The notes beneath the pieces were generated by a model. That model did no database searches, was not told where the DNA came from, and saw only the letters and a list, made by a program, of their open reading frames with translations. Made by a program: the position numbers and the translations under genes. A stretch of 64,000 nt of DNA from the NCBI GenBank assembly GCA_963760525.1, contig CAVXDT010000005.1, forward strand, positions 23,628 through 87,627, read 5' to 3'. Origin of the DNA: Nitrososphaeria archaeon. GTDB taxonomy: Archaea > Thermoproteota > Nitrososphaeria > JACIWG01. Below are positions 22,683 through 64,000 of this stretch, piece by piece. Within the stretch, counting starts at the first letter, position 1; every line of letters starts with the position of its first letter.

Positions 22683-23747
22683 TCACATGGTTCGTGCCTT
22701 CTGGTAGGCAAAGGCTATTCCTTCATTGGTTACTGCTCCTATTACTTTACTGGGTTCTTCCCTTGAAACCACAGCTAGAAGGTCGAGCTTCTCGCGCTGC
22801 ATAATCTTATACGCTTCAAGGACTGATTCATCAGGATAAATGGAGATTAACTTAGATGGCAGTTGTCCAAGTACGAGTTCCTTTCTTTGCTCTGGCTTAA
22901 TTTTTATGATCTCTTTCCAAGCTACGATTCCTTTGAAGATGTCACCTTCTACAATTAGTATATCATGATATCGTGCCCTGAACATTATTTCCAATGCTTC
23001 GAAAAGCGTTGTTTCGGGTTTTGCGAAAGCCACTTCAGTATACATTACGTCTTTTACGCTGATCTGGGCGATGGTGGTCGAGACTAATGTCGACTCATTC
23101 TCCTCAGATGCTCCCACATATATGAAAAAACCTATTATCATCAGCCATAAATTTGAAAGACCTCCAAAAACAACCATTCCCATTCCCAGAATCCTACCGA
23201 TAAAAGCAGCATCTCTTGTCGCATCTGAAAATTTCATTCGTTCTGCAAGCAAAGCCCTCAGAACCCTTCCTCCGTCCATTGGAAAAGCTGGAATAAGGTT
23301 AAAGAGGGCAAGAAACAAGTTGAGTCCTCCAAGGTCAAAAAGCACGTTACCCGTTGGGTTTTGGTTAAGTAAGAAAGTCCATAGAGAAGACAGTGTTGAA
23401 GGGGTTAGTGATAGTGTCAAGAGCGCTGTGCCAATGGCCAGACTTGTCAGCGGTCCAGAGATAGCCATACGCCATTCCACTCTCGGTTTATCAGGTATAT
23501 CTTCGATCTGTGATGTTCCTCCTATGGGGTAAAGAATTATTTTACGCACTCCAATTCCGTAGTGTCTAGCGACAACCGAGTGTGAAATTTCGTGAGCAAC
23601 TACCGAGACGAAAAGAAGAACCATCAACAATAGCGGGTAGAGATCAGGATATGAGAAAATAAACACAAAAGCCATTAGCAAAACAAAAGTTATATGAAGC
23701 TCCAGAGGAATTCCGAACAAAGAGCCGATTCTGAAAGAATATTTCAT
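22683..23747 (-). CDS. site-2 protease (M50 family) with C-terminal CBS pair
   Basis: HEISH zinc motif, NLIPAFPMDGGRVLRA motif, then two CBS-like repeats. The start is placed at MKYSFRIGSLFGIPLELH. Confidence 0.9.
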   Translation of the reverse strand: MKYSFRIGSLFGIPLELHITFVLLMAFVFIFSYPDLYPLLLMVLLFVSVVAHEISHSVVARHYGIGVRKIILYPIGGTSQIEDIPDKPRVEWRMAISGPLTSLAIGTALLTLSLTPSTLSSLWTFLLNQNPTGNVLFDLGGLNLFLALFNLIPAFPMDGGRVLRALLAERMKFSDATRDAAFIGRILGMGMVVFGGLSNLWLMIIGFFIYVGASEENESTLVSTTIAQISVKDVMYTEVAFAKPETTLFEALEIMFRARYHDILIVEGDIFKGIVAWKEIIKIKPEQRKELVLGQLPSKLISIYPDESVLEAYKIMQREKLDLLAVVSREEPSKVIGAVTNEGIAFAYQKARTM

Positions 23748-23924
23748 GGATAGGAAAAGACTAAACCCTAGTTTTAAACTTTTGGACAAATGACCCAATA
23801 GTCATTGCTTTTGTTATGTTCTAACTTAGAACGCTTATTGAAGGTTGAACGCTTATGGGTATGAAATCAATTCTTAGCCATGTCTTAAGAACAATCAGGG
23901 GCTTATCAAAATTGAGCCGGGAAA

Positions 23925-25031
23925 TTAAGTCTGCTTCCTTCTTGTCATTATGAGTGCAAGAATTATCACAATTCCAATTATAGTTATGATCAGAATAAGC
24001 TCGATTGACCCAACTTGGCCGGGGGAAGTCAGGGTAGTCGTGTAGGTGGTTGTTGAAGTCTGAGTCATTGTTGAAGTCTGAGTCATTGTTGAAGTCTGAG
24101 TCATTGTTGAAGTCTGAGTCATTGTCGAAGTTGTAGTAGAAGTAGTTGTGATGGAAGCGGTTGTAGTTTTGGTTGTTGTTGAGGTTACAGTAGGTCCTGG
24201 AACAGTGGATGTCATGGTTGTTGTTGAAGTTGTTGTAGACGTGGATGTCGGCATATTATGAAGGTAGTTCACTGTGAAACTGGATCCATCTGACGTGGGG
24301 TCTGAAATAGCGACCAAAGTCGTATTCGTCTCATCCATCATTAGCACTCTTGTGAAAGGAAAGCTGCTGATTGTTCCGGCGACGTTATTTACTACGGCAT
24401 TTGCGTCGGTGATGGTCACAGCTCCAAAGTCCGCTAGAGAGGTGAGCGAATTGTTCACTGTGGGTCTCTCAACAATCCATTCGGCGGACAACATAGAGGA
24501 GCGATAGCGTATGCTTGTCTGAAACGTTTGCCCTGTTGTAACATCTGCTATTACTATTGACCATCCATCTATTGCAGGATTAGCGAGGTATATTGAAGCC
24601 GATATTTTGTCGCCTGAGGAGACGTCTAGTCTGCCTATCGTCCTAGAATATTGAGGCAGCACCTCGAACCAGGCGGAATAAACTTCTTGTCCTCCTACAT
24701 AGTCCTGTTCAGTACCGGTCTGGATTAGCGTTCGGTCAAAATATCCGCCTATTCCAATCCACATAGCAGAAAAAGTGTCGTTTTGGGAAATGTTCACTCT
24801 GGGAACGACCCAGGAGCCTGTAACGTTGACTACTACAGGCTGTGGGTTACTGTTGTCTGAAACGACGACATAACCTCCCCAATCCAAGCTTGGAACATCA
24901 GTAATCTGCTGTAATAGGATTGGAGATAGATTGGAAGATGATGTTGCAGATGGAATAGGAACAATTAGTAAGAATGATGATAGTATGATAACTGAAGTCC
25001 ATAGACTTCTACTCGGATTTCCATAACACAA
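23925..25031 (-). CDS. secreted G1-family (eqolisin-like) glutamic peptidase with Thr-rich stalk and C-terminal anchor
   Basis: Motifs: SAMWIGIGGY, LIQTGTE (candidate catalytic Gln), YSAWFEVLP (candidate catalytic Glu), SSGDKISASI, SAEWIVERP, LADFGAVTITDA. The stalk contains (MTQTST)x4. The tail is PGQVGSIELILIITIIGIVIILALIMTRRKQT. Confidence 0.7.
   Translation of the reverse strand: MCYGNPSRSLWTSVIILSSFLLIVPIPSATSSSNLSPILLQQITDVPSLDWGGYVVVSDNSNPQPVVVNVTGSWVVPRVNISQNDTFSAMWIGIGGYFDRTLIQTGTEQDYVGGQEVYSAWFEVLPQYSRTIGRLDVSSGDKISASIYLANPAIDGWSIVIADVTTGQTFQTSIRYRSSMLSAEWIVERPTVNNSLTSLADFGAVTITDANAVVNNVAGTISSFPFTRVLMMDETNTTLVAISDPTSDGSSFTVNYLHNMPTSTSTTTSTTTMTSTVPGPTVTSTTTKTTTASITTTSTTTSTMTQTSTMTQTSTMTQTSTMTQTSTTTYTTTLTSPGQVGSIELILIITIIGIVIILALIMTRRKQT
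24050..24121. repeat. perfect 18-bp tandem repeat x4 inside the peptidase stalk
   Basis: tgttgaagtctgagtcat repeated four times. It encodes (MTQTST)n on the minus strand. Confidence 0.9.
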
Positions 25032-32963: not shown

Positions 32964-33710
32964 CTATATCTCCTCCCTTATCCTTCTCCCAGTGAGTTTA
33001 ATGAAGATCTCTTCCAAGTTCGTTACTCGTCCCTTTGAAATCAAATCTTTGGGCGAACCAAGTGCTATCAGCTTTCCATGGTCGATTATGCCGACGCGGT
33101 CGCAAAGTGCCTCAGCTTCTTCCATGTAATGTGTGGTCAGAACGATGGTTTTGCCTTCTTTCTTAAGTTCTCTTATGAAGTCCCAAACAGCATGGCGCGA
33201 CTGCGGGTCCATGCGCTACTGTCGGCTCATCTAAGAATGCGATTTGCGGGTCGTGGATAAGCGCAAGGATAAGGCTTAGTCTGCGCTTCATGCCGCCGCT
33301 GTATTTCTCAGCCTTTCTCTTAGCAGTCTTGTGTAAGCCCCATTTTTTCCAGAAGCATAGCACGTCGCTTTTTGAGCGTTTCTTTGTCCATGCTTTGTAG
33401 ATTTCCGAAGAGTTCTACGTTCTCAGCACCAGTCAGATAAGGGTAGACTGCGGTCTCTTGAGGGCATACACCTATCATATCCTTAACCTTCCGCCTTCTT
33501 TTTGAACGTCGTAATCACCAACCTTTGCGGTGCCCTTGTTGGCTTTGTCAAGCCGCAGAGAATGTTTATGGTAGTGGTTTTACCTGCACCATTTGGACCC
33601 AACAATCCGAAAAGCTCACCTTTTGCAACCTGTAAGCTGACGCCATCCACTGCAGTAACATCCTCGAATTTCTTGACGAGGTTTTCTATTACGACGGCTG
33701 ATTCAATCAT
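32964..33710 (-). pseudogene. ABC transporter ATP-binding protein, at least 2 frameshifts
   Basis: Walker [11 protein letters not shown] (ORF 33483-33722), signature YSGGMKRRLSL plus Walker B AFLDEPT (33163-33363), and the C-terminus LTTHYMEEAEALCDRVGIIDHGK (32964-33212) lie in different frames. Confidence 0.8.
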
Positions 33711-34848: not shown

Positions 34849-35381
34849 TTGCGACTTTATCTGCTAAGCTGGGTTCGAAGGGGAGGTGCTATAGTGGCCT
34901 TATCTGAATTCTCTATTGGCTATTTCTCGTGGTTACCTCTTCCAGTTACGATCCGGGGACTGAGTGCAGAGCAAGTTGAAATTGTCTTGCACAAGCAATC
35001 CCGTTATGACAATATTAACCGATGCCCTGCTCTCTATTGGGGAAACTCCTACCACAACTATTTCACTGCATGGATCCAGGCTACCAAGTAGTTGCCATAT
35101 CAAACGATGTCAGATATACCGTAATATTGTCCGCCTACTATGGGAATGGGGTGATAATGATCACAGGTCAAGACGCGGACTATCACGCCTACTATGAATC
35201 CCAACTAGGTGCCTATATACTTCTAAACAACATGTTAAGCTATGGCTGCTCTTATAGGTCTAAGAGTCCAGTAGGAGGCGAACTAGTATCGGGCAGCTTA
35301 CCTATTTCAATGGCGCCATATGTCATGCTCGTCGGAGCTGCTGGAACAGCGATTATCCTGCGCAAGAAAAGAAAGCTATGA
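34849..35381 (+). pseudogene. secreted protein of the VGGEL-tail family, frameshifted
   Basis: The protein-like reading is spread over three overlapping frames. It ends KSPVGGELVSGSLPISMAPYVMLVGAAGTAIILRKKRKL, with VGGEL at 35280-35294. Confidence 0.5.
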
Positions 35382-37443: not shown

Positions 37444-37500
37444 TAACTCTAGTCAACCCAAGAACGATAGAAAAAAAGAATATGGGGGTTCTAGAGTTTT

Positions 37501-38400
37501 AGCTTTTTCCTGGCAACTAGTATGGACGTGCTACTGCTGCGAGCACGGTGATTGAAGTGAGGAACGTGGAGGAGAGAACGGATCCGATGTCAAACGCAGA
37601 ATTGCTTACAAGCTCACCACCGACCGGAGGCTGCCTTCCAACACAGACGAATGTAATCTCGTTCTCCATCATGTCCACAGCCTTCGAATCATGCACCTCA
37701 TCGAGAAGGAAAGTGTTGAGCAAAGTTCTGCCATAATTGGCAACCACTATGAATGCCTGTCCGTCCGCAGGCGACGACGTGATACCACCTAAAGCTGTGC
37801 CGCCATCGATCACCTTCTCAGTTATCGCATCAACACCGTATACTTTAGGTGTAACTTGAGAAAGCGGATTAGGTATGCTATTTGGTATGCGAAATATAGG
37901 ATGAGCCCAATTCCACTGATACAGAGATGTAAGACTTGTTACTTCAACAGCAGAGCTCTGATCGACACCGAGGGTAGCCCAAAGAGGATGAGGAATTACA
38001 TCTACCAGCCACGAGCACATGATTAGCTTGCCACCACCCACCACGTAAGCATTGAGCGCATCATATGTCTCAATATCCGGAGACCGAAATTGGTCGTCGA
38101 AGATCACGCAGCAGGGATTCATCGTTTCCAAAGCAGTTTTGAAGCCTGCGAAATTGGCATTATAATATGCTACGTAAGCCTAAGCCTAAGCCTCTGCAGA
38201 GCCTGGTCGACTATGGTGTTCGGAGCTGTGAAAACAACTCCGTCAGCGTAGACGAGTATACATGGATCGCTGCCAACGCGCTGTGAACTTACCTGTGAAG
38301 CCTCCTCAACTGGATTTAGAGAATTAATTTCTTGCGATGCCATATGATGGATCAGGAAAATGATTGCCACTATTATGTAAACTAAGAATATTTTCTTCAC
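37501..38400 (-). pseudogene. secreted protein of the VGGEL-tail family, frameshifted
   Basis: Signal peptide MKKIFLVYIIVAIIFLIHHMA. There is a break after a (GGCTTA)x3 repeat near 38170. The C-terminus is RQPPVGGELVSNSAFDIGSVLSSTFLTSITVLAAVA. A basic tail ARKKLKL is reachable only through another -1 shift. Confidence 0.6.
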
Positions 38401-40839: not shown

Positions 40840-41527
40840 CTAAAACTTTTGTTTCCTTTTAGCAGTCACCACTACTAGAACGGCTCCAAAACTCCCAGCA
40901 AAGCCACAATAGGCGATACCAACGCAAGTCTGTTTGCAGGCATAAGGCTGCCACCGACAGCGCCAATAGTTGGTCCAGGACAGAATTTAGCATAGAAAGC
41001 TCCTGCTCCATAATGTGCAATAATTGCCTGAAAGCAAAATAGTGTATTCCAGACTGTAAAAGCACTCGGAACGTATCGTGGCTATAGGTTGGATCAGCAA
41101 AAGCCACGTCTGGATCTGTTACACTTCCAGAAACCACTGGCACTTGAGGCGTTGTGCCGATCAGGTTAGCTATTGTAGGATGGACACCATTCACTTCATA
41201 CACTTCGAAATAGTCTCCTTTACTAAATGCGTCAGTAACTGAGATATCAACGTACATCGGCTGCATTACATATATTGACACAATATCATCAGCCCACCCT
41301 GACCCCGAAAATGGAGGCAGAGTACTACTATCAGACCATACTATGTGACCAGGCCATGGGCTCCAAGTGCAGTTCACCTTCATAGGCAATTCTGTAGGTG
41401 TTATCGGGCCTTGCATCGCGATCTGGCCCCCTCCGTTGTTCGACGAGGCTAAGATTGGCTGCATTACACCTAGCATCAGCAAGAGCGTTAATGTCTCTAA
41501 CACTAGCAATTTCTTCAATGCGATCAA
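40840..41527 (-). pseudogene. secreted protein with VGGSL-TM-KRKQKF tail, at least 2 frameshifts
   Basis: The signal peptide is MIALKKLLVLETLTLLLMLGVMQPILASS. The C-terminal reading can be recovered in alternative frames. It reads AIIAHYGAGAFYAKFCPGPTIGAVGGSLMPANRLALVSPIVALLGVL..AVLVVVTAKRKQKF-stop. Confidence 0.55.
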
Positions 41528-41692: not shown

Positions 41693-43411
41693 ATGGCAAT
41701 ATCTGTCTACCTCGATCTAGCTTTGCTATCGCTAGTGAACTTGATACTTTTGTTCGTCATCTTTGGCATTCCAGGGCGCAGAACCAATAGTGAAGAAGAC
41801 CGCGATGTTCGATACAACTATGGCATACTCAGAACAATAGCTGTTATCATAGTAATTTCCATTATACTGGGATTGCTATTCATTTTCGTTACAGTTACAT
41901 TCCTATACGAACTGCTCGCCGACATAGTGCTCGTAGGCCTTTCCATGTCAGCCCTGCAGTATTCGAAGAACATAAGAAATCCGGGCAAGAAGAGCACGCT
42001 CCTCATAGTTTTGTTCATCTTACTCGGCAGTGTGGGTGCAGGCTATTATGGATGGTATGCCCAAGTCAACAACGCTTACTACTTTAATCATCTTCTCGAA
42101 TTCGAACCGGGCAATATTCTATTCAGCAATTCAACTTTACGGTTAGGAGAACTGCCTTTGGTTTCAGAAGACTACGCGAAATCGATTGCTTCTTCGCATC
42201 TGAGTGAGTTTGGAGGCAGCGTGCAACTCGTAGACGAGGAGCAGATCGTTCATCAGGGCCAACCGTACTGGATCTTCACAGTCGCGCCGACAAACACGTT
42301 TGCAGAGAACCATGAGCTGGGTTTCGTACTGGTTGATGCTGTGAACGGCAGTTACATAGATATCAAATCGCCTAACGATGTGGGGCCAGGACTCTTCCTG
42401 TTCAACGAGATTGACTTTCATTCTTTTTTGGAGGATACGACCATCGTCATCGGAAATCACTATCCGACTCCCTCATTACAAGGCAACTCGACAGTCTACT
42501 ACGTTTTTACGCAGAACCAGGTGCAGTTGGACGGTGCGACAGCCTTCAATGGAGGGACGATTTATGGGCCAGACGGGTCCATGGTTTCCAAATATGAAGG
42601 ATTGGATTCCCCTGCTTATGTCAATCAACCTTGGGATAAATTCGTGGTTGCTCAATTGGCAACGAATTGGGGTTCGACTAGGTCGGGAAATAACACCTTC
42701 AGCGTTTTCGCAGGAGGATTCTTCACCATTCCAGCAAGTCAGTTTAGACTAGCTCTTAGCACTGATCAGGAATTAATTCCGTACAGAAATGGGACGGCCT
42801 TCATGCTCTTTGTCAGCCCAGCCAATGCCCCGAATTCACTTGTAGGAGTCATCCTTACGTACAGGGACCAATTTTCCTTTTACGACATGCAGGGAATCAA
42901 TCTTATCTCACCGGACTATGCTAAAGCGACGGTGCAGTCAAAGTTGCCAGCATTGAGCAACGGAAACCTATTCGCTGCAAACCCGGTAATATATCCCTCG
43001 AATGGCAAATTCATTTGGATCGTGCCATATTACTATGACAGCGGCACTGGCGTAGTTCAATTTCAAGGCATAGCTGTAATGGACGCGTCGAACGCAGGTA
43101 ACCTGATAATTCAGGAAGCTCAAGGGGGAATCGAGCAGACCAGGGACACCGCCCTAGCCAGCTTCCTCGGTGAGGGCACCGGCAATCAGACGAAGACAAC
43201 TCAGATTACCGGAACCATACAAGACATCCTCTCCTACGTACAGAACGGAAGCACATACCTCTCGATCGAAATCAATGGAACCTACTATTATGCGACACCG
43301 AATACCTTGTCCTTTGAACAGTGGGTTCAAGCTTTACGACTAAAGATCGGGGATGCGGTCAAACTCCAGGTGGAGGGACAGAAGATAGTCCAGCTGAATA
43401 TTGGAACATAA
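41693..43411 (+). CDS. large membrane-anchored extracellular protein, unknown family
   Basis: 572 aa. Four N-terminal TM helices followed by about 440 aa of a beta-rich, N-glycosylation-sequon-rich domain. Confidence 0.7.
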   Translation: MAISVYLDLALLSLVNLILLFVIFGIPGRRTNSEEDRDVRYNYGILRTIAVIIVISIILGLLFIFVTVTFLYELLADIVLVGLSMSALQYSKNIRNPGKKSTLLIVLFILLGSVGAGYYGWYAQVNNAYYFNHLLEFEPGNILFSNSTLRLGELPLVSEDYAKSIASSHLSEFGGSVQLVDEEQIVHQGQPYWIFTVAPTNTFAENHELGFVLVDAVNGSYIDIKSPNDVGPGLFLFNEIDFHSFLEDTTIVIGNHYPTPSLQGNSTVYYVFTQNQVQLDGATAFNGGTIYGPDGSMVSKYEGLDSPAYVNQPWDKFVVAQLATNWGSTRSGNNTFSVFAGGFFTIPASQFRLALSTDQELIPYRNGTAFMLFVSPANAPNSLVGVILTYRDQFSFYDMQGINLISPDYAKATVQSKLPALSNGNLFAANPVIYPSNGKFIWIVPYYYDSGTGVVQFQGIAVMDASNAGNLIIQEAQGGIEQTRDTALASFLGEGTGNQTKTTQITGTIQDILSYVQNGSTYLSIEINGTYYYATPNTLSFEQWVQALRLKIGDAVKLQVEGQKIVQLNIGT

Positions 43412-50044: not shown

Positions 50045-50796
50045 TTGAGTGATGGTTTGACGCGTTACAAACGCCTTATTGTATTCTCGGTCGCATTTTT
50101 TGTTGTTTTGGTGCTATCCTTGTCAGCTGTTCCTGTCTTCGCTGAATCAGTGCAAAGCCCATCCGCTGGAGTCTCACAAGCTGATGTGCAGGCGAGCAGC
50201 CTGGTGGGAAGATATCCGCCCAAGATCACTATAGGGGAGACGATAACGGACAATCATGATGGTACGTGGACTTACTCCTACGACATCTGCTCCAACGAGG
50301 AAACTGTGAACATTTGGTGGGTCCTCATATATACCAGATTTGACTATGCGTCGACGGCGGTGGGCTCCTTCACTGCATTCGGAGGTCACACGTCGTGGGG
50401 TTTCGAAATTAACGAGCCTATCAACGCGAATCCCGAACAGGATGCCAGAAACATTGATCCGACCTTAACCGCGTTCCAGGACACTTATGCCCAGGTTGGC
50501 CGGGACCGCCTGTACAGGAACCCATAATCCCTGGAGAGCGAACTTATGGCTTCTCTTTCACAGCGAACGCCTACGATCCTAATCCGAAGGTCTTCGCGTA
50601 TGAGGTTGAAGGCCAATATTTCCATTATGATAGTAAGTTCGCTGCTTGGGGTTGGACGACTGGACCATGTAGGCAGACTCCTCCTGTGGGCGGCGAACTA
50701 GTTGTCTCCTCGAAGTATGGTCTAGTGTTCTCTGCTGCGGCCTTGATTGTTCCAGCTGCTGCCATCTTCTACGTGGAAAAGAAGAAGAGAAAGTAA
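50045..50796 (+). CDS. secreted protein of the VGGEL-tail family, one frameshift near 50500 (best preserved member)
   Basis: The signal peptide ends AVPVFAES. The mature part continues in the -1 frame without stops. It reads PIIPGERTYGFSFTANAYDPNPKVFAYEVEGQYFHYDSKFAAWGWTTGPCRQTPPVGGELVVSSKYGLVFSAAALIVPAAAIFYVEKKKRK-stop. Confidence 0.65.
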
Positions 50797-53985: not shown

Positions 53986-54038
53986 ATAGATATAAGCAAT
54001 TAACATCAGAGAACACAAAAGAAAAGGTTAGGTAGATA

Positions 54039-54935
54039 ATGCAAGCCGACAAGTCAAAGATCATAGCCTGCATTCCAGCTTTTAATGAAGAGCGGAGTAT
54101 AGCCGGTGTCATCATCAAAGCGCAGAAGCATGTTGACAAGATCATAGTATGCGATGATGGGTCAAAGGATATGACAGCGGAAATAGCTGAGAAGCTGGGA
54201 GCAGAGGTTGTCCGGCATGAAAGGAACATGGGGTATGGTGCAGCCTTAGCCACACTATTCAAGAAAGCCAGAGAAAATAATGCTGATATCATGATTACGT
54301 TGGATGGTGATGGCCAGCATGATCCCGATGATATTCCTAAGATGATGTCTCATCTTGCATCCGAGGAAGCTGATATTGTCATAGGATCAAGGTTCATGAC
54401 TATCGGCGGAGAAGGAGTTCCAAGTTATAGGAAGGTGGGTGTTAAGGCAATTACGAGGATTTCGAACATTGTTTCCTATCAAGAATTAACGGACGCCCAA
54501 TCCGGTTTCAGAGCGTACAACAAGGTGGCATTGAATTCGATTATGCCGAGTGAGACTCAAATGGGGGCGAGCACTGAAGTCCTGATGAAGGCAAGCGAGC
54601 TCAAGCTCAGAATCAGGGAAGTCCCTATAAAGATATCTTACGCTGGAAAAATTCCAGCGCGCAATCCAGTATATCAGGGGTTAGACGTTGTTCTGTCAAC
54701 GATAAAGCACCTTTCGATGAGGCATCCACTTCTCTTCTATGGTGTCCCCGGGTTTGCCTCTCTCGTGGTTGCTGCTTTCTTCTCGTTTTGGACGCTAGAA
54801 ATATTCGCAAACACAAGAGCAGTCGAAACAAACATAGCATTGGTAGCTGTAGCAGCAGCGATCGTAGGGCTGATGCTCATGACAACCGCGATATTGCTCT
54901 GGGTAATAATCAGCGTAGTACGGGAAAAGCAATGA
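54039..54935 (+). CDS. GT2 family glycosyltransferase (dolichyl-phosphate hexose synthase-like) with C-terminal TM helices
   Basis: IACIPAFNEERSI, VCDDGSKDMT, TLDGDGQHDP, two C-terminal TM helices. Confidence 0.9.
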   Translation: MQADKSKIIACIPAFNEERSIAGVIIKAQKHVDKIIVCDDGSKDMTAEIAEKLGAEVVRHERNMGYGAALATLFKKARENNADIMITLDGDGQHDPDDIPKMMSHLASEEADIVIGSRFMTIGGEGVPSYRKVGVKAITRISNIVSYQELTDAQSGFRAYNKVALNSIMPSETQMGASTEVLMKASELKLRIREVPIKISYAGKIPARNPVYQGLDVVLSTIKHLSMRHPLLFYGVPGFASLVVAAFFSFWTLEIFANTRAVETNIALVAVAAAIVGLMLMTTAILLWVIISVVREKQ

Positions 54936-55022
54936 TCGCAGGCGAACGGAAATCAGGGCAAATTGACCTGAATAGTAAGAATTATAGCATCGTCTATTAC
55001 ATAACTGCAGTGTGAAAATGGA

Positions 55023-55958
55023 TTGAGCACTATTCTGGTGACTGGTGGAGCAGGGTTCATAGGTTCTAACCTTGCAAAGGAACTCAGACAGAGAGGTCAC
55101 CATGTTATCGCTTTAGACCAGTTTAACACTGACAATGAAGGCTATGTTAGAGCTGATGTTCAAAGCTTCAGGCAGGTGGAGGAAGCTTTTGAAAAATGGA
55201 AGTTCGACTATGTCTACCATCTCGCAGCAGAATATGGCAGATGGAACGGAGAAGACTACTATGAAAACCTTTGGAGGACCAACGTCATAGGAACAAAACA
55301 TATGCTGCGATTGCAGCAGAAGCTCAATTTCAAGCTCATATTCTTCTCCTCCGCTGAAGTATACGGTGATTACGGAGGGCTTATTACAGAAGATGTTATG
55401 GAAAGAAATCCCATCAAGGACACCTATCAGATGAACGACTACGCGGTGACCAAGTGGGCAGGTGAGCTGATGTGCATGAACGCTGCCAAAATGTATGAGG
55501 CAGAGATTGTGAGGGTTAGGCCCGTCAACTGTTATGGGCCAGGAGAGCATTACACGCCCTACAGAGGTTTCATCCCGAAGTTCATCTTCCATGCGCTCTT
55601 CTGTAAGCCATATATCGTCTACAAGGGGCATCGGAGGATAATCGACTACGTTGACGACTCATGTCGAACTTTCGCCAACATTGTAGACAACTTTGTTCCA
55701 GGAGAAGTCTATAATGTGGGAGGAAGACTGGAGTGGGAGAAAGACATCAAAGAATATTCGGACATCGTTCTTAAAACAGTTGGCAGAGACGATTCTACAG
55801 TTGTATACAGGGATGCTGAGCCTTTTACTACAAAGATCAAGCACATAGACTGTTCAAAGGCAATCCGAGACCTGAAGCACAATCCTATGGTCTCTCCAGA
55901 AGAAGGGATAAAAAGAACTGTCGAATGGATGAAATGGTACTATAGGATGGGTGAATAG
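55023..55958 (+). CDS. NAD-dependent epimerase/dehydratase (extended SDR)
   Basis: VTGGAGFIGSNL, SSAEVYG, YAVTKWAGE (YxxxK). TTG start. Confidence 0.85.
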   Translation: MSTILVTGGAGFIGSNLAKELRQRGHHVIALDQFNTDNEGYVRADVQSFRQVEEAFEKWKFDYVYHLAAEYGRWNGEDYYENLWRTNVIGTKHMLRLQQKLNFKLIFFSSAEVYGDYGGLITEDVMERNPIKDTYQMNDYAVTKWAGELMCMNAAKMYEAEIVRVRPVNCYGPGEHYTPYRGFIPKFIFHALFCKPYIVYKGHRRIIDYVDDSCRTFANIVDNFVPGEVYNVGGRLEWEKDIKEYSDIVLKTVGRDDSTVVYRDAEPFTTKIKHIDCSKAIRDLKHNPMVSPEEGIKRTVEWMKWYYRMGE

Positions 55959-55960
55959 TG

Positions 55961-56965
55961 ATGGAAGAATCATATGATGCGTTCACGGGAAAGATCATTC
56001 TTGTCACAGGAGGAGCAGGCTCCATTGGAGCAAATCTGGTCAGAAGATTAAGTTTGCTGCAATATAAAGTAAGGAAAATAATCATTTTAGACGACTTATC
56101 ATCATCCTACGAATGGAATATTCCAAGAGGACCTAACATTCAATTCATAAGAGGCAGCATTCTAGACGAAGAAAAATTGAAGTGCGCCTTTAAAGACAAG
56201 CCTAACATAGTATATCATCTTGCAGCCCATTTCGCCAACCAGAACTCCGTAGACAACCCTGAAACAGACCTCATGGTGAACGGGATGGGTATCCTGAAGG
56301 TTCTCGAATACTCCCATCTTGCCAAGGTGGAACGGTTCATCTACTCCTCTTCAGGATGTGGCATATACGGACCCGATTCCAAAATACCCTTCGAAGAACA
56401 TGACGTGTCAATGAAGCTCTACACGCCATATCAGGTTACAAAGATGCTCGGCGAACTCTACACAAACTACTTCCACAACTTATATGACCTACCCATTGTA
56501 AACGCTAGGTTCTTCAACTCTTACGGTCCGGGAGAGGTTCCGGGAAAGTACAGGAACGTCATACCCAACTTCTTCTATTGGGCGATTAGCGGAAAACCGC
56601 TTCCCATCACCGGAACTGGCGAGGAAACGAGGGACTTCACCTATGTCGGAGACATAGTTGACGGTCTCTTGGCAATGACATCTAATGATAAAGCCGTAGG
56701 GGAAGCCTTCAACCTTGCCACGGCAAAGGAAATAAAAATCATAGATCTCGCCATGTGGGTAAATGACCTTGAAGGAACCAAGTCTGCAATAATATTCAAG
56801 GAAAGAAGAGAATGGGATAAGAAGACAAGGCTTCTCGCATCAATAGAGAAAGCGCATAGAATACTAGGCTATGAGCCGAAAGTGGAATTCAGGCAGGGGC
56901 TTATACGCGTTCATCAATGGTTTAGAGAGAATTGGGAGAGCATACAGAAGTCAGCGGAATTCTAG
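55961..56965 (+). CDS. NAD-dependent epimerase/dehydratase (extended SDR)
   Basis: VTGGAGSIGANL, SSSGCGIYG, YQVTKMLGE (YxxxK). Confidence 0.85.
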   Translation: MEESYDAFTGKIILVTGGAGSIGANLVRRLSLLQYKVRKIIILDDLSSSYEWNIPRGPNIQFIRGSILDEEKLKCAFKDKPNIVYHLAAHFANQNSVDNPETDLMVNGMGILKVLEYSHLAKVERFIYSSSGCGIYGPDSKIPFEEHDVSMKLYTPYQVTKMLGELYTNYFHNLYDLPIVNARFFNSYGPGEVPGKYRNVIPNFFYWAISGKPLPITGTGEETRDFTYVGDIVDGLLAMTSNDKAVGEAFNLATAKEIKIIDLAMWVNDLEGTKSAIIFKERREWDKKTRLLASIEKAHRILGYEPKVEFRQGLIRVHQWFRENWESIQKSAEF

Positions 56966-57055
56966 AAACCACCTGCTGTAAACCAGAAAACTTTGTCTCC
57001 AACGAAGCATCCGAATTTACGTAATACTCGATTGCAGCCTTGAAGTAACCGAAGA

Positions 57056-58132
57056 TTGAAAATAGCGATAGTCCTAGGCACAAGACCTGAAATAGTAAAG
57101 ATGTCGCCTATTGTCAGGGAACTTGAGCAGTCGGAATCAGATTTTCTTATCGTTCATACAGGCCAACATTATTCCTACAACATGGATAGGCAGTTCTTCG
57201 AACAACTTGAAATTCCAGAACCGAAATATAACTTGAACGTTGGCTCAGGCAGTCATGCAGAAGAAACTGGAAAAATGCTTATCGGAATAGAGCGGATCCT
57301 GATCAAGGAGAATCCGGATATAGTGCTCGTTGAGGGAGACACGAACAGCGTGCTTTCTGGAGCGTTAACTTCTTCAAAACTGCACATAAAGGTAGGCCAT
57401 GTTGAAGCTGGACTGCGCAGCTTTGACAGAGATATGCCAGAAGAAATAAACCGAGTTTTAACAGATCATATTTCCGACTATCTTTTTGCCCCAACAGAAA
57501 AAGCAAAAGAAAACCTGCTCAAAGAAGGAATAGAGGACAACAAGATATACGTTACAGGAAATACTATAGTTGACGCTGTAATGCAGAACATTAAAATGGC
57601 TAATGACGTCAACTCCCTCTCAAATGTCAGTTTGAACGAAAAATACTTCCTTGCTACCTTGCACAGACAAGAAAACGTTGACAAAGAGAAGAGTCTGAAG
57701 AGCATAATAATTGGTCTGGAAAATGCAGCTGAAAGGTTCGATATTCCCATAGTGTTCCCCATCCATCCGAGAACGAGAAAGATGATAGAGCGGTTCAACA
57801 TCCACATTAGCAACGGTGTGAAGCTCATTGAACCGTTGGACTACTTGGCATTCCTGAAGCTTCTGAGTGGGGCTAGTCTTGTGTTCACGGATTCTGGAGG
57901 CGTACAAGAGGAAGCATGCATCCTTAAAGTACCGTGTGTAACGTTGAGGTACAACACTGAAAGACCTGAGACCATAGATGTCGGAGCTAACATGCTTGCT
58001 GGAACTGAACCTCAAAGTATAGTTGAGAAAGCGTCAACCATGATCAGCAGGAAAAGAATTTGGGCAAATCCCTTTGGCGACGGCAAAGCTGCCGAGAGGA
58101 TAGTAAGAATTATAACATCATCCATAACCTAA
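57056..58132 (+). CDS. wecB: UDP-N-acetylglucosamine 2-epimerase (non-hydrolysing)
   Basis: IVLGTRPEIVKMSPI, HTGQHY, VEGDTNSVL, HVEAGLRSFD, TDSGGVQEEA. Confidence 0.9.
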   Translation: MKIAIVLGTRPEIVKMSPIVRELEQSESDFLIVHTGQHYSYNMDRQFFEQLEIPEPKYNLNVGSGSHAEETGKMLIGIERILIKENPDIVLVEGDTNSVLSGALTSSKLHIKVGHVEAGLRSFDRDMPEEINRVLTDHISDYLFAPTEKAKENLLKEGIEDNKIYVTGNTIVDAVMQNIKMANDVNSLSNVSLNEKYFLATLHRQENVDKEKSLKSIIIGLENAAERFDIPIVFPIHPRTRKMIERFNIHISNGVKLIEPLDYLAFLKLLSGASLVFTDSGGVQEEACILKVPCVTLRYNTERPETIDVGANMLAGTEPQSIVEKASTMISRKRIWANPFGDGKAAERIVRIITSSIT

Positions 58133-58136
58133 AGCC

Positions 58137-60353
58137 TTGAAGGTTAAAAGCTTGAACACAGAAGGTAGCTACCAAACTCATGCCCAATGCGGCATATTTG
58201 GCATTGTAATCGGGGAAAACCTCCAGCTGTCGGTTCCTGAGCTTATGGGGACAATGAACAATATGTTCAAGCTTTCAGAGTCGCGGGGCAAAGAAGCGTC
58301 GGGGATCGCTGTGAGGGTTAATCAGTCAATTTACGTTTTCAAGGAGCCTGTTTCCTCGTCTGAACTGATCAAATCGGCAGAGTATCACAATCTCTTCAGG
58401 ACCGTAATTAAGAGTGAGGGCTACGTGGAGGGCTGTCTTAAGGCTCCTCTGGTTATTTTTGGCCACTCCCGTTTGGCGACCAATGGACCTAGTGGAATGA
58501 ATTCTAATAATCAACCCGTGGTTAAAGATGGTGCCGTAGGGGTTCACAACGGGATAATTGTTAATGATGGGGAACTTTGGAAATCGTTTCCAGTGCTTGA
58601 AAGGAAGTATGATGTGGACACGGAGGTTTTTCTCAGTCTCTTGCAGATGTTTAGGAAGCAGGATGAATCTTTTGTGAGCGCTGTTAGGCGTGTATTTGAG
58701 TGTATTGAGGGCTCAGCGTCTGTGGCTGTGCTGTTTGAGGATGCTGACGCCGTCTTGCTTGCGACTAACACGGGTTCCCTGTATATGTGCTTGAGCCACA
58801 GTGGAAAAGTGTTAATTTTTGCTTCGGAAAAATACATTCTCGGACAGATTATCAGCGCTAGACATATGACGAACCTTTTTGACCCCAACGCGATCGTTCA
58901 GGTCAAGGCAGGGCAGGGATGCCTGCTTGATCTCGTTACAATGACAGAGAGCATGTTTGCTCTGAAAGACGGGGAAACTGGCAACATTTCAGAACCGATG
59001 ATACCTCTGAGTGCTAAAATTGTCGAGCTTTATGACCCTAAAGCCAGTATGAGCTCTCCTAGTATGGATCTTTACGCGCTTAGGGATGATGTTAAACAGT
59101 CTATGATGAAGACTTGGGAGGATCTATATTCTGGTGTAATTAGTCTGCGGCGATGCTCTAGGTGTCTTCTGCCTGAGACGATGCCTTTCATCGGTTTTGA
59201 CGAGGAGGGGGTCTGCAACTATTGTAGGGACTATGAACATAGAGGTAGCTTTCTGAAAGGGGAGAAAGCATTAGAAGAGTATATCTCAAAGTATAGGAGT
59301 GCTTCTGGTGAGCCGGATTGCATCATAGGTTTCAGCGGTGGCAGAGATAGTTCCTATGGATTGGACTATTTCAAAAACCGTTTGGGGATGCATCCCATTA
59401 CTTTCACTTATGACTGGGGTATGGTTAATGATCTTGCGCGCAGAAACCAAGCACGTGTCATCGGAAAGTTAGGCATTGAACAGATCGTGGTTTCTGCTGA
59501 TATTAACTGGAAGAGGAAGAACATCCACAGGAATTTGAAGGCTTGGCTTAAGAAGCCTGACTTGGGCATGGTTCCTCTGCTGATGGCTGGGGATAAGCAG
59601 TTCTACTACTATTTCCATAAGGTGCGCAATCAGACTGGGGTTAAGTTGTTCGTTTTCTGTGGTGGTTATGAAGCTGAGGAGGGCACTGGTCTCTTCAAGT
59701 ATGGTTTCTGCAATGTGAGTCAGGGTAGCAAGAATGCTTTGAAGAGGATGACTGGAATATCGTTGGTTGACAAGCTGAAGATGATATATTATTACATGAA
59801 GCAGTATGTTAGGAATCCATCCTACATTAACAGGTCAATATTAGACACTTTGTTTGCGTTCTATTCCTCGTACATACTGCGTGATGATTACCTGTATTTG
59901 TATCATTACTTGGATTGGGATGAGAATAAGATTCTTTCGCATATAGTTGAGAAGTTTAATTGGGAGCGAGAGACTGACACGATAGCAACTTGGCGCATAG
60001 ATGATGGTACCGCTCCGTTCTATAACTATATTTACATGACTATGGCAGGCTTTACGGAATTTGATATATTCAGAAGCCACCAGATACGCGAAGGCAAACT
60101 GAGCAGAGTAGAAGCCTATAATCTTGTGAAAGAAGAGAACAGGCCTCGCTTCAAATCAATCGAATGGTACGGTCAAGCAATAGACTTTGACATGAACAGA
60201 GCCATTGAGATAATCAATTCAGCACCGAAACTTTACCGAAAAGCTTCAGGGAAGAAAGATGTTTCTCAGGATGGCGCAGCAGGGTTTAAGGAGAGTCAAG
60301 AGCTTTCGGCTTCGACGTTAACAATACAGGATAAGGTAAATTCTACACCTTGA
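58137..60353 (+). CDS. fusion of a class II (Ntn) glutamine amidotransferase domain with a WbuX/WbpG/PseA-type N-acetyl-sugar amidotransferase (PP-loop)
   Basis: The N-terminal part has QCGIFGIV, GHSRLATNG and VGVHNGIIVN. The C-terminal part has RCSRCLLPETMPFIGFDEEGVCNYCRDYE (Zn ribbon) and IGFSGGRDSSYG (PP-loop). Confidence 0.8.
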   Translation: MKVKSLNTEGSYQTHAQCGIFGIVIGENLQLSVPELMGTMNNMFKLSESRGKEASGIAVRVNQSIYVFKEPVSSSELIKSAEYHNLFRTVIKSEGYVEGCLKAPLVIFGHSRLATNGPSGMNSNNQPVVKDGAVGVHNGIIVNDGELWKSFPVLERKYDVDTEVFLSLLQMFRKQDESFVSAVRRVFECIEGSASVAVLFEDADAVLLATNTGSLYMCLSHSGKVLIFASEKYILGQIISARHMTNLFDPNAIVQVKAGQGCLLDLVTMTESMFALKDGETGNISEPMIPLSAKIVELYDPKASMSSPSMDLYALRDDVKQSMMKTWEDLYSGVISLRRCSRCLLPETMPFIGFDEEGVCNYCRDYEHRGSFLKGEKALEEYISKYRSASGEPDCIIGFSGGRDSSYGLDYFKNRLGMHPITFTYDWGMVNDLARRNQARVIGKLGIEQIVVSADINWKRKNIHRNLKAWLKKPDLGMVPLLMAGDKQFYYYFHKVRNQTGVKLFVFCGGYEAEEGTGLFKYGFCNVSQGSKNALKRMTGISLVDKLKMIYYYMKQYVRNPSYINRSILDTLFAFYSSYILRDDYLYLYHYLDWDENKILSHIVEKFNWERETDTIATWRIDDGTAPFYNYIYMTMAGFTEFDIFRSHQIREGKLSRVEAYNLVKEENRPRFKSIEWYGQAIDFDMNRAIEIINSAPKLYRKASGKKDVSQDGAAGFKESQELSASTLTIQDKVNSTP

Positions 60354-60418
60354 ACGTGCTAGCTAGTTATTGCTCTACGCTTCTTAGGAAACTGCTGGAT
60401 AGGAGAATAAATTAAGTT

Positions 60419-61613
60419 TTGAACGTACTAATTGTGGCACAATTCTTTCCACCTGACTTGGGTGGTTCAGCAACACGCGTGTACAATGTAGCCAAAGGAC
60501 TGGTCCTTAACGATTGCAGGGTCACTGTTGTCACAGCATTTCCACACTATCCTCAAGGGAGAATATCCAGAGAATATAGGTGGAAGCCTTTGAAGATTGA
60601 GATGCTAGGTAAGATCAGAGTTATCAGAACATTTCAGCTGCCACTAGCATCAAAAGGAATTGTGAAAAGGTTGATCTTAAAAGGCGTCTTCGTGATAACT
60701 TCCCTATTTGCCATGCCAATTGTGGGTCATGTTGACTCGGTTTGGGCTTCCAGCTGGGTTTCGGGAACACTATTTGCTCAGATAAAAAGAAAACCTATTG
60801 TTCTAAATGTTGATGATCTTGATCTTGAAGATATGTCAGATCTAAAGCTATCAAGAGAGGATTCAATAATCATCAAATTAGCCAGAATAGTGTACAAGTC
60901 TGTTCTACCTAAAGGGGGATGCAATAACACCAATCAGTCCAGGTTACGTCAGTAAAATCGTAAACAAATATGGTGTGCCAAAGGAACGGATTCAAGTGAT
61001 CAAAGGCGGTGTTGATCTAACAATATTCAAGCCTGAACCTATCCATCATAGCACTAATGAGAAATTCATCGTACTTTACTCGGGAGCATTTTCTGTTGCT
61101 TATGACTTTGAACAAGTTCTCAAAGCTGCTAAGAGCTTGAAAGAAGATAAAGCAATCGAATTCATACTTCAAGGAAAAGGCGAACTCATAGATCAAATAA
61201 GGTCAATGATCAGAGAATTGGACCTAAAAAATGTAAAAGTAATAGATAAGATATTGAGTAGAGAGGAAGTGTCAAGGCTACTAAACGAAGCTGATGTTCT
61301 GCTTCTTCCTCTACGGGACTTCGGAAAACCCTATCTTGGAATATCATCAAAGCTCTACGAATATCAAGCAGTTGGAAAGCCAATAATCTGTTGTGCTAGT
61401 GGGATGCCAGCATCCTATGTTTTGGAAACAAAATCAGGAATTGTAGTCGAACCTGGTGATTATGTCACTTTAGCTAAGTCTATACGTTATCTGAAAGAAG
61501 ACCATAACGCTGCAATTGAAATGGGACAAAGAGGAAGAGTTTATGTCGAAGAAAATCTTTCTATTGAAAGGATTGGTCAAAGTATGAAAAGTCTTTTTGA
61601 ACATATTTCCTGA
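60419..61613 (+). CDS. GT4 family glycosyltransferase, frameshift at a G5 run near 60925
   Basis: The N-terminus has VAQFFPPDLGGSATRV. Removing one G from AAAGGGGGA gives KGDAITPISPGYVSKIVNKYGVPKERIQV, joining the two ORFs. The C-terminal domain has LPLRDFGKPYLGISSKLYEYQAVGKPII. Confidence 0.85.
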
Positions 61614-61626
61614 AAACAGAAATCCA

Positions 61627-62373
61627 TTGCGATCACCGAGTAAGGCAATAATCCTTGCAGCAGGTATGAGTAGTAGATTACGTTCAGTGACGGCTTCACC
61701 CAAGACGCTGTTAAGTTTTGGTTCCCACACGCTCCTAGATAGAATATTGCTCTCTTGTAGGAAGGCTAGCATATTTAGGATTGTTATTGTTGTAGGCTAC
61801 CGAGCAGAAGAGATTGAACATCACTTAGAAAAGAATGAGAGCATAATAAAGGGTCTAAACATGAAAATTATTTACAATCCGGAATATGAAAAAACAAACA
61901 ATATCTATTCTTTTTGGCTTGCGAAGGAAGAGATGAATGAGGATTTTGTCCTATTTAACTCTGATGTCCTCTTCCACGAAGGAATCATTGACAAAGTAGC
62001 TAATAGCAACAAAAATTCATTTTTGTTAATAGATGATAAGAAGAAGTTAGGGGTGGAAGATATGAAGGTCATCCTGAACGATTCTGGGTTTGTGACAGAT
62101 ATTTCAAAGACAATTGACCCTAGGCTCGGCAATGGCGAATATATTGGCATTGCAAGATTCTCCGATCAAGAAGTTATAGGAAGGATTTTGTCAAAATGCA
62201 GATTGTTGCTTGATGCGAATAGCGTAGGCGTATTTTACGAAGAAGCACTTAGGCTCCTATCCGTCGAAGAGCCTTGTATTCAAGGATTAAGTACTGATGG
62301 TTTGCCTTGGATAGAAATTGATACCCCTAAAGATTATGAGAAAGCAAAAACGATAGCTAATAAGATGAAATAG
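61627..62373 (+). CDS. sugar/alcohol-phosphate nucleotidyltransferase (LicC/MobA-like NTP transferase)
   Basis: KAIILAAGMSSRL...PKTLL, NNIYSFWLA, LFNSDVLF, GEYIGIARFS. The start is uncertain (TTG at 61627 or 61597). Confidence 0.75.
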   Translation: MRSPSKAIILAAGMSSRLRSVTASPKTLLSFGSHTLLDRILLSCRKASIFRIVIVVGYRAEEIEHHLEKNESIIKGLNMKIIYNPEYEKTNNIYSFWLAKEEMNEDFVLFNSDVLFHEGIIDKVANSNKNSFLLIDDKKKLGVEDMKVILNDSGFVTDISKTIDPRLGNGEYIGIARFSDQEVIGRILSKCRLLLDANSVGVFYEEALRLLSVEEPCIQGLSTDGLPWIEIDTPKDYEKAKTIANKMK

Positions 62374-62485
62374 ATGAATCTGTATCTCAAACATATGATG
62401 GTAACATAGACTCATAATATTATAGATATTTTGTTAATTCTTGCTGTCACAACTGATTTCTAAATTAGGAAAAAAGGAGCCTAGG

Positions 62486-64000
62486 ATGGTTACGATTATT
62501 CTCATATGTATAGAATGTATGACGGAATTTTTGGATTATATTTTTCATAAGGACAGTAAGATAATAGTTTTTGGTTCTAATACGGGACAATATGCTTCAG
62601 GTTCGTCAAAAGCCTTGTTCGATTATATTAAGAGAAAAAATACTAAATACAAGATCTATTATTATGAACCTTTTAAGAAATCCTTAAGCCTAAATTCTAG
62701 GATACAATATATTGTCAGTTTCGTTCCTATTTTTTTTAGAGCGAGTTTTCTGGTTAGTACTCATCCACCTTCAGATTTCATTCCATACTTATCATGGTCC
62801 AGAAGGAAAGTGTTTGTTAATGTGTGGCATGGTACTCCTTTCAAATCCATTTTCTTTGCAGATAAGAGTGAAACAAAACTAGATCTATATAGACTTTCGA
62901 GACTCAACAATAGGACATCTGCTTTCATTGTTTCATCAAACTTAGAGGCCAAGTTGATTAAGAAATGTTTTCTTATAGATTCCAAGAAAATCTATTGTCT
63001 AGGGCACCCAAGAAATGACATATTACTGAAAATAGAGCATTCCAAAACTCTTTCTAATCTCATCAAGAATATCCCTGAATACAATAAAGTAATTCTGTAT
63101 TGCCCGACTTATCGCGAGAGCAACAATGCATCTTTTTTTCCTTTTAGTGACCTTGATTTGGAGCATCTGAATCGCTACTTAAAAGAAAATAAGATGCTTA
63201 TCCTTATTAGGGCGCATTATTATGATCAGAAGCTCGACAATCGTTTCTTCTCTGAAAGAATAATCTATTTTGGTTTTGATGTGTGCGAAGATATTAACCC
63301 CATCTTGCCTGAAGTGGATATTCTCGTTACCGATTATTCTTCCATCTACATTGACTACCTGCTCATCGACAGACCCATGATTTTTATCCCATATGATCTA
63401 GAGAATTATAAGGCAAACAGAGGCATTCTCTTGGAATATGAATCATGGACACCAGGTCCTAAGGTCCTTACATATAGAGAATTAATCCAAGCAATTGAAG
63501 AGATAATATCGGGAAAGGACAAATACAGCAATTGGAGAAACGTCTTAAGTAGACAATTTCATTCTTGTCAGACCAACAACTCTTGTGAAAAAGTCTCCAA
63601 ATTAATTGATAAATGGAAATCAAATAATACTTCAATGGAAATCCCAAACAATACATCAATAAAAATACTGCAAGTTTGCCATTCATTCTACCCTTGTCTT
63701 GCTGCTGGCGGAGTGGTAAGGGTTTCACTTGAAATGTCTAGAAACCTAGTAAAAAGAGGCCATCTAGTTACAGTTTACACAACAGATGGCTGTACAAAAA
63801 GACTGAAGGTACCTAAGAATCGTCTAGTTGACGTAGAAGGTATCAAAACATACTACTTTAGTAATCTATCCAATTGGCTAAGGGAAAGTCTAAAGGTCGC
63901 AACTCCTTTCTACTGGTTTGTCACAGCAGATAATGATTTTAAGCATTCTGATGTAGTGCATATTCATGAATTCACTACAATGTTGTCAATACTTGCTTAT
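62486..64000 (+). CDS. TagF-like CDP-alcohol phosphotransferase domain fused in frame to a GT4 N-terminal domain (partial, open at the window end)
   Basis: My codon-by-codon reading from the ATG at 62486 to 64000 found no stop. This ORF is absent from the supplied track. TagF-type motifs are VWHGTPFK, VILYCPTYRE and DILVTDYSSIYIDYLLIDRPMIFIPYDLENYKANRGILLEYESWTPGPKV. From about 63655, IKILQVCHSFYPCLAAGGVVRVSLEMSRNLVKRGHLVTVYTTDG is a GT4 N-terminus. Confidence 0.8.
   Translation, partial: MVTIILICIECMTEFLDYIFHKDSKIIVFGSNTGQYASGSSKALFDYIKRKNTKYKIYYYEPFKKSLSLNSRIQYIVSFVPIFFRASFLVSTHPPSDFIPYLSWSRRKVFVNVWHGTPFKSIFFADKSETKLDLYRLSRLNNRTSAFIVSSNLEAKLIKKCFLIDSKKIYCLGHPRNDILLKIEHSKTLSNLIKNIPEYNKVILYCPTYRESNNASFFPFSDLDLEHLNRYLKENKMLILIRAHYYDQKLDNRFFSERIIYFGFDVCEDINPILPEVDILVTDYSSIYIDYLLIDRPMIFIPYDLENYKANRGILLEYESWTPGPKVLTYRELIQAIEEIISGKDKYSNWRNVLSRQFHSCQTNNSCEKVSKLIDKWKSNNTSMEIPNNTSIKILQVCHSFYPCLAAGGVVRVSLEMSRNLVKRGHLVTVYTTDGCTKRLKVPKNRLVDVEGIKTYYFSNLSNWLRESLKVATPFYWFVTADNDFKHSDVVHIHEFTTMLSILAY

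Follow-up and report, generated by a model that had tools for sequence, protein, structure and literature searches.

C-terminal sorting signals of tripartite design, in which a short signature is followed by a transmembrane helix and a basic cluster, were founded on the example of LPXTG and its sortases. Five classes of sorting enzyme are known (sortase, exo/archaeosortase, rhombosortase, myxosortase/CPBP and type IX-like), and lineage-specific signals such as Loki-, Heimdall-, CGP- and PEFG-CTERM are described regularly. Here we describe a recurrent C-terminal tail with a VGG signature, encoded five times in a 64-kb stretch of archaeal DNA (contig CAVXDT010000005.1; the whole stretch is called the window), with the carrier gene at 50045-50796 as focal case, and we compare it with these systems.

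Among the described signals, PGF-CTERM (processed by ArtA), Loki-CTERM (NF033507) and Heimdall-CTERM (NF045529) are likewise archaeal and tripartite, stand at the very C-terminal end of surface proteins exported by Sec, and are found on unrelated cargo many times in one genome. PEP-CTERM/exosortase, PEF-CTERM and VPXXXP-CTERM share the architecture and also behave alike in the genome, where small secreted proteins form tandem arrays. The GlyGly-CTERM signal of rhombosortase also presents a Gly-Gly signature directly before the helix and basic cluster, and here one enzyme serves many substrates and is usually encoded away from them (PMC3237569). The MYXO-, JDVT- and CGP-CTERM signals of the myxosortases (CPBP family) are tripartite too, CGP-CTERM being archaeal (10.1101/2023.06.07.544157; PMC11980579), and carry a Cys near the signature, as VGG tails often do.

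The VGG tail in the window

A regular expression for xVGG[ES]L, applied to the six-frame translation of the window, gave five matches, each of which leads, within about 40 residues, through a hydrophobic stretch and a Lys/Arg cluster to a stop codon; the five proteins for which a common tripartite C-terminus had been claimed in the original prediction were thus all recovered. The sole further VGGxL (55707) is internal to a cytoplasmic-looking open reading frame (ORF). Chance expectation is far lower, with a mean of 0.2 copies (maximum 3) in 100 first-order Markov simulations and of 0.09 copies (maximum 2) in 200 amino-acid shuffles of the ORF residues. The V, G, G and L of the motif are invariant in two alignments (A1 and A2), and its E is invariant too when PVGGEL-type tails alone are aligned (A8). 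Most PVGGEL tails have a Cys close upstream of VGG.

The codons of the motif vary among the window copies (GTA/GTC/GTG, GGA/GGC/GGT, GAA/GAG, CTA/CTG/CTT), and the 120-nt tail DNA is 44-55% identical among them, which points to protein-level selection as the force that preserves the motif. A repeated DNA element or a recent duplication as origin of the copies was ruled out on the same two grounds. As had been proposed, the mature domains differ: the passengers of six PVGGEL-type carriers (window genes 1-4, the focal family and P0006) show no mutual similarity, with all BLASTP E values above 0.6. Among the non-orthologous PVGGEL tails of the window, conservation is confined to the PVGGEL signature, and the helix is not conserved.

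In the assembly the focal gene is read in two frames, the first of which ends with a stop at 50527, with the tail in a different frame. Since the orthologue P0005 reads TYAPGWPGPG across the junction, the window appears to have lost one C of a CCCC run at this site (Table 1). The signal peptide and the tail of the focal protein were borne out, but 50045-50796 is not a single ORF. The intact orthologues P0002, P0003 and P0004 have 246-257 aa and 55-64% identity, and all orthologues contain seven residues (EPQSxxx) that are missing from the focal tail in the window. The predicted focal helix falls inside H222-245 of the AlphaFold model of P0002, a low-confidence model, and AlphaFold2 on the focal family (5 sequences) gave a mean predicted local distance difference test score (pLDDT) of 37.8, unusable for a fold search. 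No relative of the focal family was found in a scan of the genome collection.

The other carriers were delimited in the same window (Table 1), two of their tails with a hidden Markov model (HMM) E value for the tail. Gene 1, upstream of tail 1, is broken over at least three frames. Gene 2 lacks its N-terminus and has protein P0013 as database match. Gene 3 has a 1-nt frameshift within the helix near 37531-37534 and a disrupted N-terminus; its intact orthologue P0010 (299 aa) combines a signal peptide with the same tail. Gene 4, with a readable signal peptide, has two 1-nt frameshifts, in the T-run 40888-40891 and near 41015, and its tail is intact in the orthologue P0008. Signal peptides had been claimed for three readable N-termini; those of the focal gene and gene 4 could be confirmed directly, that of gene 3 only through P0010. 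In divergent orientation to gene 4, a 572-aa protein with four N-terminal helices and a large extracellular domain is encoded at 41693-43411 (+). It has no Pfam, NCBIfam or PDB match, and its homologues lie close to trpB2 in other Bathyarchaeia loci without VGG-tail matches, so that it is not specific to the tail system.

Table 1. Coordinates of the focal gene and of the other VGG-tail carriers in the window
Feature	Position	Strand	Description	Basis
Focal gene	50045-50796	+	Secreted protein of about 251 aa with PVGGEL tail; 1-nt frameshift inside; ORF 50045-50527 plus tail frame 50458-50796	
Focal signal peptide	50045-50143	+	MSDGLTRYKRLIVFSVAFFVVLVLSLSAVPVFA, then ES; conserved in orthologues	Read from translation
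Focal frameshift site	50490-50492	+	CCC in the window where orthologues imply CCCC	
Focal signature	50683-50700	+	P-V-G-G-E-L	Regular expression and alignments
Focal predicted transmembrane helix	50716-50775	+	YGLVFSAAALIVPAAAIFYV	Hydrophobic stretch in translation
Focal basic cluster and stop codon	50776-50796	+	EKKKRK, stop	Translation
xVGG[ES]L matches	9278 (+), 35262 (+), 37633 (-), 40967 (-), 50677 (+)			Six-frame regular expression
Tail 1	9227-9403	+	FSVGGEL (VGGEL 9287-9301), helix, KIRRKA, stop	Tail HMM E 1.1e-11
Gene 2	35022-35381	+	119 aa; SPVGGEL (35268-35285), helix, RKKRKL	Tail HMM E 1.1e-11
Gene 3	37491-38131	-	PPVGGEL (37610-37627), helix, ARKKLKL	
Gene 4	40840-41527	-	AVGGSLMPANRLALVSP (motif 40944-40961), helix, KRKQKF	

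The window DNA is that of a Bathyarchaeia archaeon: TrpB2 (10795-12189) yielded about 600 relatives from the genome collection, and the best 80 of these are nearly all labelled Bathyarchaeia or Bathyarchaeota, at up to 88% identity. Frameshifts are not confined to tail carriers. Conserved genes without a tail are split as well (9519-10739 (-), 3505-4918 (+) and 32988-33707 (-)), and the 380-aa gene next to trpB2 is broken in the window near 9821-9839 but whole in 56 Bathyarchaeia relatives. Two of the non-tail junctions (near 9830 and near 4250) are close to A-runs, and the ORF coverage of the window is 0.675, compared with 0.70-0.86 in all 11 related loci examined. As housekeeping genes are frameshifted too, indels across the assembly are suggested rather than decay of surface genes; assembly or sequencing indels are the simplest explanation, and real gene decay is a possible alternative source. 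Phase variation of surface genes was rejected as the main cause, given that conserved non-surface genes are also affected.

These indels bear on a trivial account of the tails, namely that a chance peptide in front of generic anchors, a DNA repeat or an assembly error has been mistaken for a signal. The many 1-nt indels of the assembly, conserved genes included, and the frameshifts in four of the five window carriers would suit an artefact, but five copies stand against 0.1-0.2 expected, codons and DNA of the copies differ, independent assemblies hold intact orthologues with the same tails, and more than 130 related tails were found in independent metagenomes. We give this account practically no weight.

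Extent and cargo of the VGG-tail family

An exhaustive profile search against 1.84 billion representative proteins (E <= 0.001) gave 14 matches. They comprise orthologues of window genes 2-5; P0006, in which the same tail follows a different cargo; P0014, P0016 and P0017, whose related tail resembles window tail 4; and two repeat proteins in which the similarity is limited to the short signature. With the exception of these two, all matches are C-terminal or in truncated ORFs. A word-indexed search with a mixed tail profile returned 3 proteins. A profile of the tail-4 type recovered 34 more, whose tails are highly uniform; one, P0037, comes from the Bathyarchaeia metagenome-assembled genome GCA_050012535.1 at NCBI. 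This larger family follows the pattern [AP]-VGG-VV-x-P-x-N...PWLAVIGLVGCIG...KKRR.

A metagenome scan with the patterns PWLAVIG[LQ]V and VGGVV[MIV]P[AV]N confirmed 147 copies and returned 79 loci. The tail HMM, run on all six-frame ORFs of these loci and of the earlier contexts (552 kb), found 136 matches, and 128 of the 134 in stop-terminated ORFs end 0-3 residues before the stop codon, so that the C-terminal enrichment proposed as a check was confirmed. One of the six non-terminal matches, L088:1-270 (+), continues for 26 more residues before the stop (…VKKRRTWTLAANLISYRLN…), possibly after loss of a stop. In 1.36 Mb from 80 other Bathyarchaeia loci the tail HMM gave no match at E < 0.1. Because of this result, and because just 14 matches were found among the 1.84 billion proteins, the VGG tail appears to be lineage-restricted.

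Tail genes are clustered, with four consecutive genes in L088 (2.8 kb), four consecutive in L111 (3.5 kb) and four in L082 (20 kb); in the window the density is five in 64 kb. In total 106 unique tailed ORFs were collected, of which 78 have a signal-peptide-like N-terminus according to a simple hydrophobicity rule, and the cargo of these 78 falls into 16 BLAST homology groups. Recognisable cargo includes a SpaA-like prealbumin fold, PD40 propellers and CBM96/disaggregatase repeats, and many cargo proteins are without a known domain.

The VGG-anchored profile of 92 unique tails reads, in per cent and with conservation inflated by the search patterns used, [AP]-V98-G96-G95-[VCI]-V81-x-P86-[VA]-N83-T-[FL]-A81-x-x-[AS]-P92-W89-L-A-V-I-G90-L-V90-G84-C86-I-G-T-V-V-V-V-A-K-K. 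The median distance from the V of VGG to the stop codon is 39 residues, and the helix begins 7-13 residues after the signature. A Cys is present no more than eight residues upstream of VGG in 34 of the 92 tails and within the helix in 85. The PVGGEL sub-form aligns with the common form at an hhalign probability of 89.7% (E 1.9e-6), and tail 4 (AVGGSLMPANRLALVSP) is a visible intermediate between the PVGGEL tails of the window and the larger family. Within the family, the PVGGEL form represents a branch that has diverged from the more common form VGGVVxPxN...PWLAVIGLVGCIG...KKRR.

Tail genes are cut short or overlooked in public gene calls: the 35-aa P0036 is part of a 157-aa ORF that encodes a signal peptide (L082:9635-10105 (+)), and at this locus the opposite strand has been called as a gene. 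P0024 (L081:9974-10156 (+)) is a truncated remnant tail, and an IS605-type transposase gene lies close by. Among the database proteins, very short ones (27-83 aa) were considered as standalone mini-genes or cassettes and discarded as such, P0036 lying within a larger ORF and P0024 being a remnant. Just upstream of a VGG-tail gene, tandem paralogues similar to the adenylate-forming PaaK/F390-synthetase enzymes occur in L092:400-2951, L162:2-2016 and five near-identical contigs; the resemblance was judged by eye, and the arrangement probably reflects synteny within one population.

Comparison with named sorting signals

The model libraries NCBIfam 20.0 and Pfam gave only matches below cut-off on the window tails, LPXTG with 12.7 bits and Loki-CTERM with 13.9 bits against a cut-off of 19.9, and these cover the helix and basic part only. 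Relatives of the window tails likewise matched no model at cut-off, and the best E values for 89 tails of the larger family were 0.002-0.04 (LPXTG, Loki-, Heimdall- and VPXXXP-CTERM), none reaching cut-off. The statement that VGGEL corresponds to no named CTERM signal therefore held for the window, its relatives and the 89 family tails. A literature search for the strings VGGEL and PVGG returned neural-network papers only.

The differences from each named class are specific. Compared with the PGF-CTERM group, VGG tails have [AP]-VGG instead of PGF, a longer spacer and usually no preceding Thr-rich linker. Loki- and Heimdall-CTERM models gave their sub-cut-off matches on the helix and basic part of VGG tails, whereas a true Loki-CTERM protein on the VGG-tail contig L082 was detected separately: L082:17022-18119 (-), which served as positive control, reached 26.9 bits with NF033507, above cut-off. 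This protein is propeller-like, with a Thr-rich linker and the ending PVPGF...RRRRT, and shares its contig with four VGG tails. Two different sorting-type tails coexist in the L082 organism.

GlyGly-CTERM is bacterial (Shewanella, Vibrio and others), whereas the VGG tails are archaeal, add conserved P-x-N and P-W elements, have no TIGR03501 match and have no rhomboid found nearby. Neither GlyGly-CTERM (TIGR03501) nor MYXO-CTERM nor CGP-CTERM matched at E <= 10 on six window tails and six relatives, or at E <= 1 on the 89 further tails, and JDVT-CTERM gave no HMM match on VGG tails. The signature Cys of the myxosortase signals is invariant, unlike the upstream Cys of VGG tails, and no CPBP protease was found near the latter. 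Compared with PEP-, PEF- and VPXXXP-CTERM the signature is another one and no model reached cut-off: VPXXXP-CTERM stayed at or below about 14 bits against a cut-off of 30 (best E 0.002), PEF-CTERM matched no VGG tail, and PEP_CTERM matched one of the 89 tails at E 0.29. Finally, one VGG cargo group has the SpaA-like prealbumin fold typical of sortase-anchored adhesins, but the tails lack an LPXTG-like motif. The best LPXTG match (TIGR01167/PF00746), confined to the helix and basic part, reached 15.5 bits (cut-off 15.9). Moreover, the archaeal host has no peptidoglycan, and no sortase domain was seen.

Other surface proteins of the window end in plain anchors. A 407-aa secreted protein at 18218-19441 (+) has a long Thr/Ser/Pro-rich stalk, a C-terminal helix and an ARKKAK end without VGG. 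The G1/A4-family peptidase at 23925-25031 (-) has a Thr-rich stalk of TMTQTS repeats and a plain C-terminal anchor; its tail had been proposed as a divergent variant, which the tail HMM, giving no match, did not support. The direct neighbour of this peptidase is a CBS-domain protease of the M50 site-2 type (22683-23798 (-)). The two plain anchors indicate that the VGG signature is not needed for simple anchoring.

Proposed processing, possible permanent anchoring and the search for an enzyme

The VGG tails display every sequence-level feature by which PEP-CTERM, PGF-CTERM, GlyGly-CTERM and MYXO-CTERM are defined, the partner enzyme and biochemical processing excepted (for the criteria that define established CTERM classes see 10.1101/2023.06.07.544157 and PMC3237569). 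On balance, and by a modest preference, we take them to be a class of tripartite C-terminal domain, lineage-specific in Bathyarchaeia, that serves in sorting or anchoring and is processed by an enzyme yet to be assigned. The idea of an unnamed tripartite sorting signal was thereby upheld in its architecture, its C-terminal position and the lack of a named model, and the cleavage of the tail is what we infer.

According to this proposal, after Sec export the helix and basic cluster would keep the precursor in the membrane, its cargo facing outwards and its C-terminus inwards. VGG, just outside the membrane, would be recognised by a dedicated membrane enzyme that removes the helix, and the cargo would thereby become attached to the cell surface, for instance through lipid transfer of the kind that ArtA performs on PGF-CTERM proteins. 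The enzyme would most likely be an archaeosortase-family paralogue, which is favoured by the archaeal nature of the host and by the Loki-CTERM protein, with its PGF-like signal, that shares the L082 contig with VGG tails; an intramembrane protease would be a less likely choice.

Several observations speak against processing. The helix of the larger family is unusually conserved (P92, W89, G90 and C86 %), which would also suit a functional helix that is retained, and the gap of 7-13 residues between signature and helix is longer than in signals of the PEP, PGF and LPXTG type. All tail carriers of the window are interrupted or incomplete in the assembly. In addition, no sorting enzyme was found near the tails. 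For the window, the matches listed include no domain of an exosortase/archaeosortase, rhomboid, CPBP protease or sortase, none was identified among 31 non-redundant membrane ORFs in the 552 kb around the 136 tail genes, and the precomputed Pfam lists of seven contexts contained no sorting enzyme.

Some of these observations favour a permanent, unprocessed membrane anchor, in which the helix stays in place, VGG and PxN form a flexible or structured membrane-proximal hinge and no dedicated enzyme is required. The helix Gly and Cys residues (IGLVGCIG) might then pack helices, for instance in oligomerisation or in docking to an envelope partner. The strong conservation of specific helix residues in the larger family, the spacer length and the failure to find a sorting enzyme near any tail gene examined all fit such an anchor. 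However, the non-orthologous PVGGEL tails of the window conserve the extracellular signature and not the helix, which is the pattern of a recognition site, and the same genome has VGG-less plain anchors for other surface proteins. The two patterns used in the metagenome scan (PWLAVIG[LQ]V and VGGVV[MIV]P[AV]N) moreover exaggerate the helix conservation in the larger family, and processed signals can carry invariant residues within the helix, as JDVT-CTERM does (10.1101/2023.06.07.544157), conserved helix residues being common to it and the larger VGG family. We therefore regard permanent anchoring as the less probable explanation, although one with appreciable weight.

With regard to the enzyme, the Pfam/NCBIfam scans of the window agree with the earlier statement that no archaeosortase-like gene is visible in it. 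Its membrane ORFs comprise an MFS transporter, EamA, ZIP, ABC-2, an ECF S-component, a YaaH-type protein, bPH_2, the M50+CBS protease and three unknowns, and a Pfam sweep of 80 further ORF fragments of the window gave no such enzyme domain among the matches listed (25 of 35 families). The 31 membrane ORFs around the tail genes were transporters, an acyltransferase, DUF4386, RDD or unknowns in Pfam, NCBIfam and PDB searches, and none of the unknown membrane ORFs has a homologue in the window; for a 15-helix ORF of L082, just a fragmentary relative was found in L132 and L135. In known sorting systems the enzyme gene often lies at a distance from the genes of its many substrates (PMC3237569; 10.1101/2023.06.07.544157), and the failure to find one nearby consequently does not refute processing of VGG tails.

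Processing by an intramembrane protease, either a rhomboid-type rhombosortase or a CPBP/Rce1-type myxosortase, is an unlikely variant. The invariant Gly-Gly beside the helix recalls GlyGly-CTERM (PMC3237569), and Cys residues are present upstream of VGG in the 34 family tails and most PVGGEL tails, as well as in the helix of the 85 tails noted above. An ICMT/PEMT-family membrane methyltransferase is encoded 3 kb from one VGG-tail gene (L171:6571-7101 (-)), a single observation that is of interest only in view of the CAAX pathway, where ICMT follows upon cleavage by Rce1/CPBP. On the other hand, the GlyGly-, MYXO- and CGP-CTERM models are without match, the upstream Cys is not invariant as in myxosortase-type signals, and no rhomboid or CPBP domain was seen among the matches listed for the window or in the contexts.

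It would be a long shot that the tail is the substrate signal of an enzyme outside the five known classes. A candidate is an ORF of about 260 aa with about 7 predicted helices, located directly upstream of VGG-tail genes (L102:8380-9165, L093:653-1405 and L101:2-442), in contigs that are 95-100% identical and count as one observation. This ORF has no Pfam, NCBIfam or PDB match and no homologue in the window, and it is a weak candidate partner of the tail.

The tripartite design is familiar, and the VGG tail extends the list of such signals and leaves the idea behind them as it is, unless its enzyme proves to be of a new class; in that case Bathyarchaeia would build their cell surface by a new anchoring chemistry. 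Bathyarchaeia are among the most abundant archaea of sediments and peat and have barely been cultured, and to our knowledge their cell envelope is essentially unknown. A dedicated tag would allow their surface proteome to be listed from sequence, including adhesin-like, propeller and carbohydrate-binding proteins and many of unknown function. The tail HMM would in addition fill an annotation gap, as gene callers now often truncate or miss tail genes, and the tail would provide a handle for finding the cognate sorting enzyme through phylogenetic profiling, the approach by which rhombosortase and myxosortase were reportedly discovered.

In the window as a whole, neither a tRNA gene nor an Rfam match was found. 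Its last part (54000-64000) comprises a glycan/teichoic-acid-like biosynthesis cluster with the Pfam families Glyphos_transf, GT2, GT4 and NTP_transferase, accompanied by epimerase- and amidotransferase-like ORFs that were judged by eye, and this cluster may be envelope-related.

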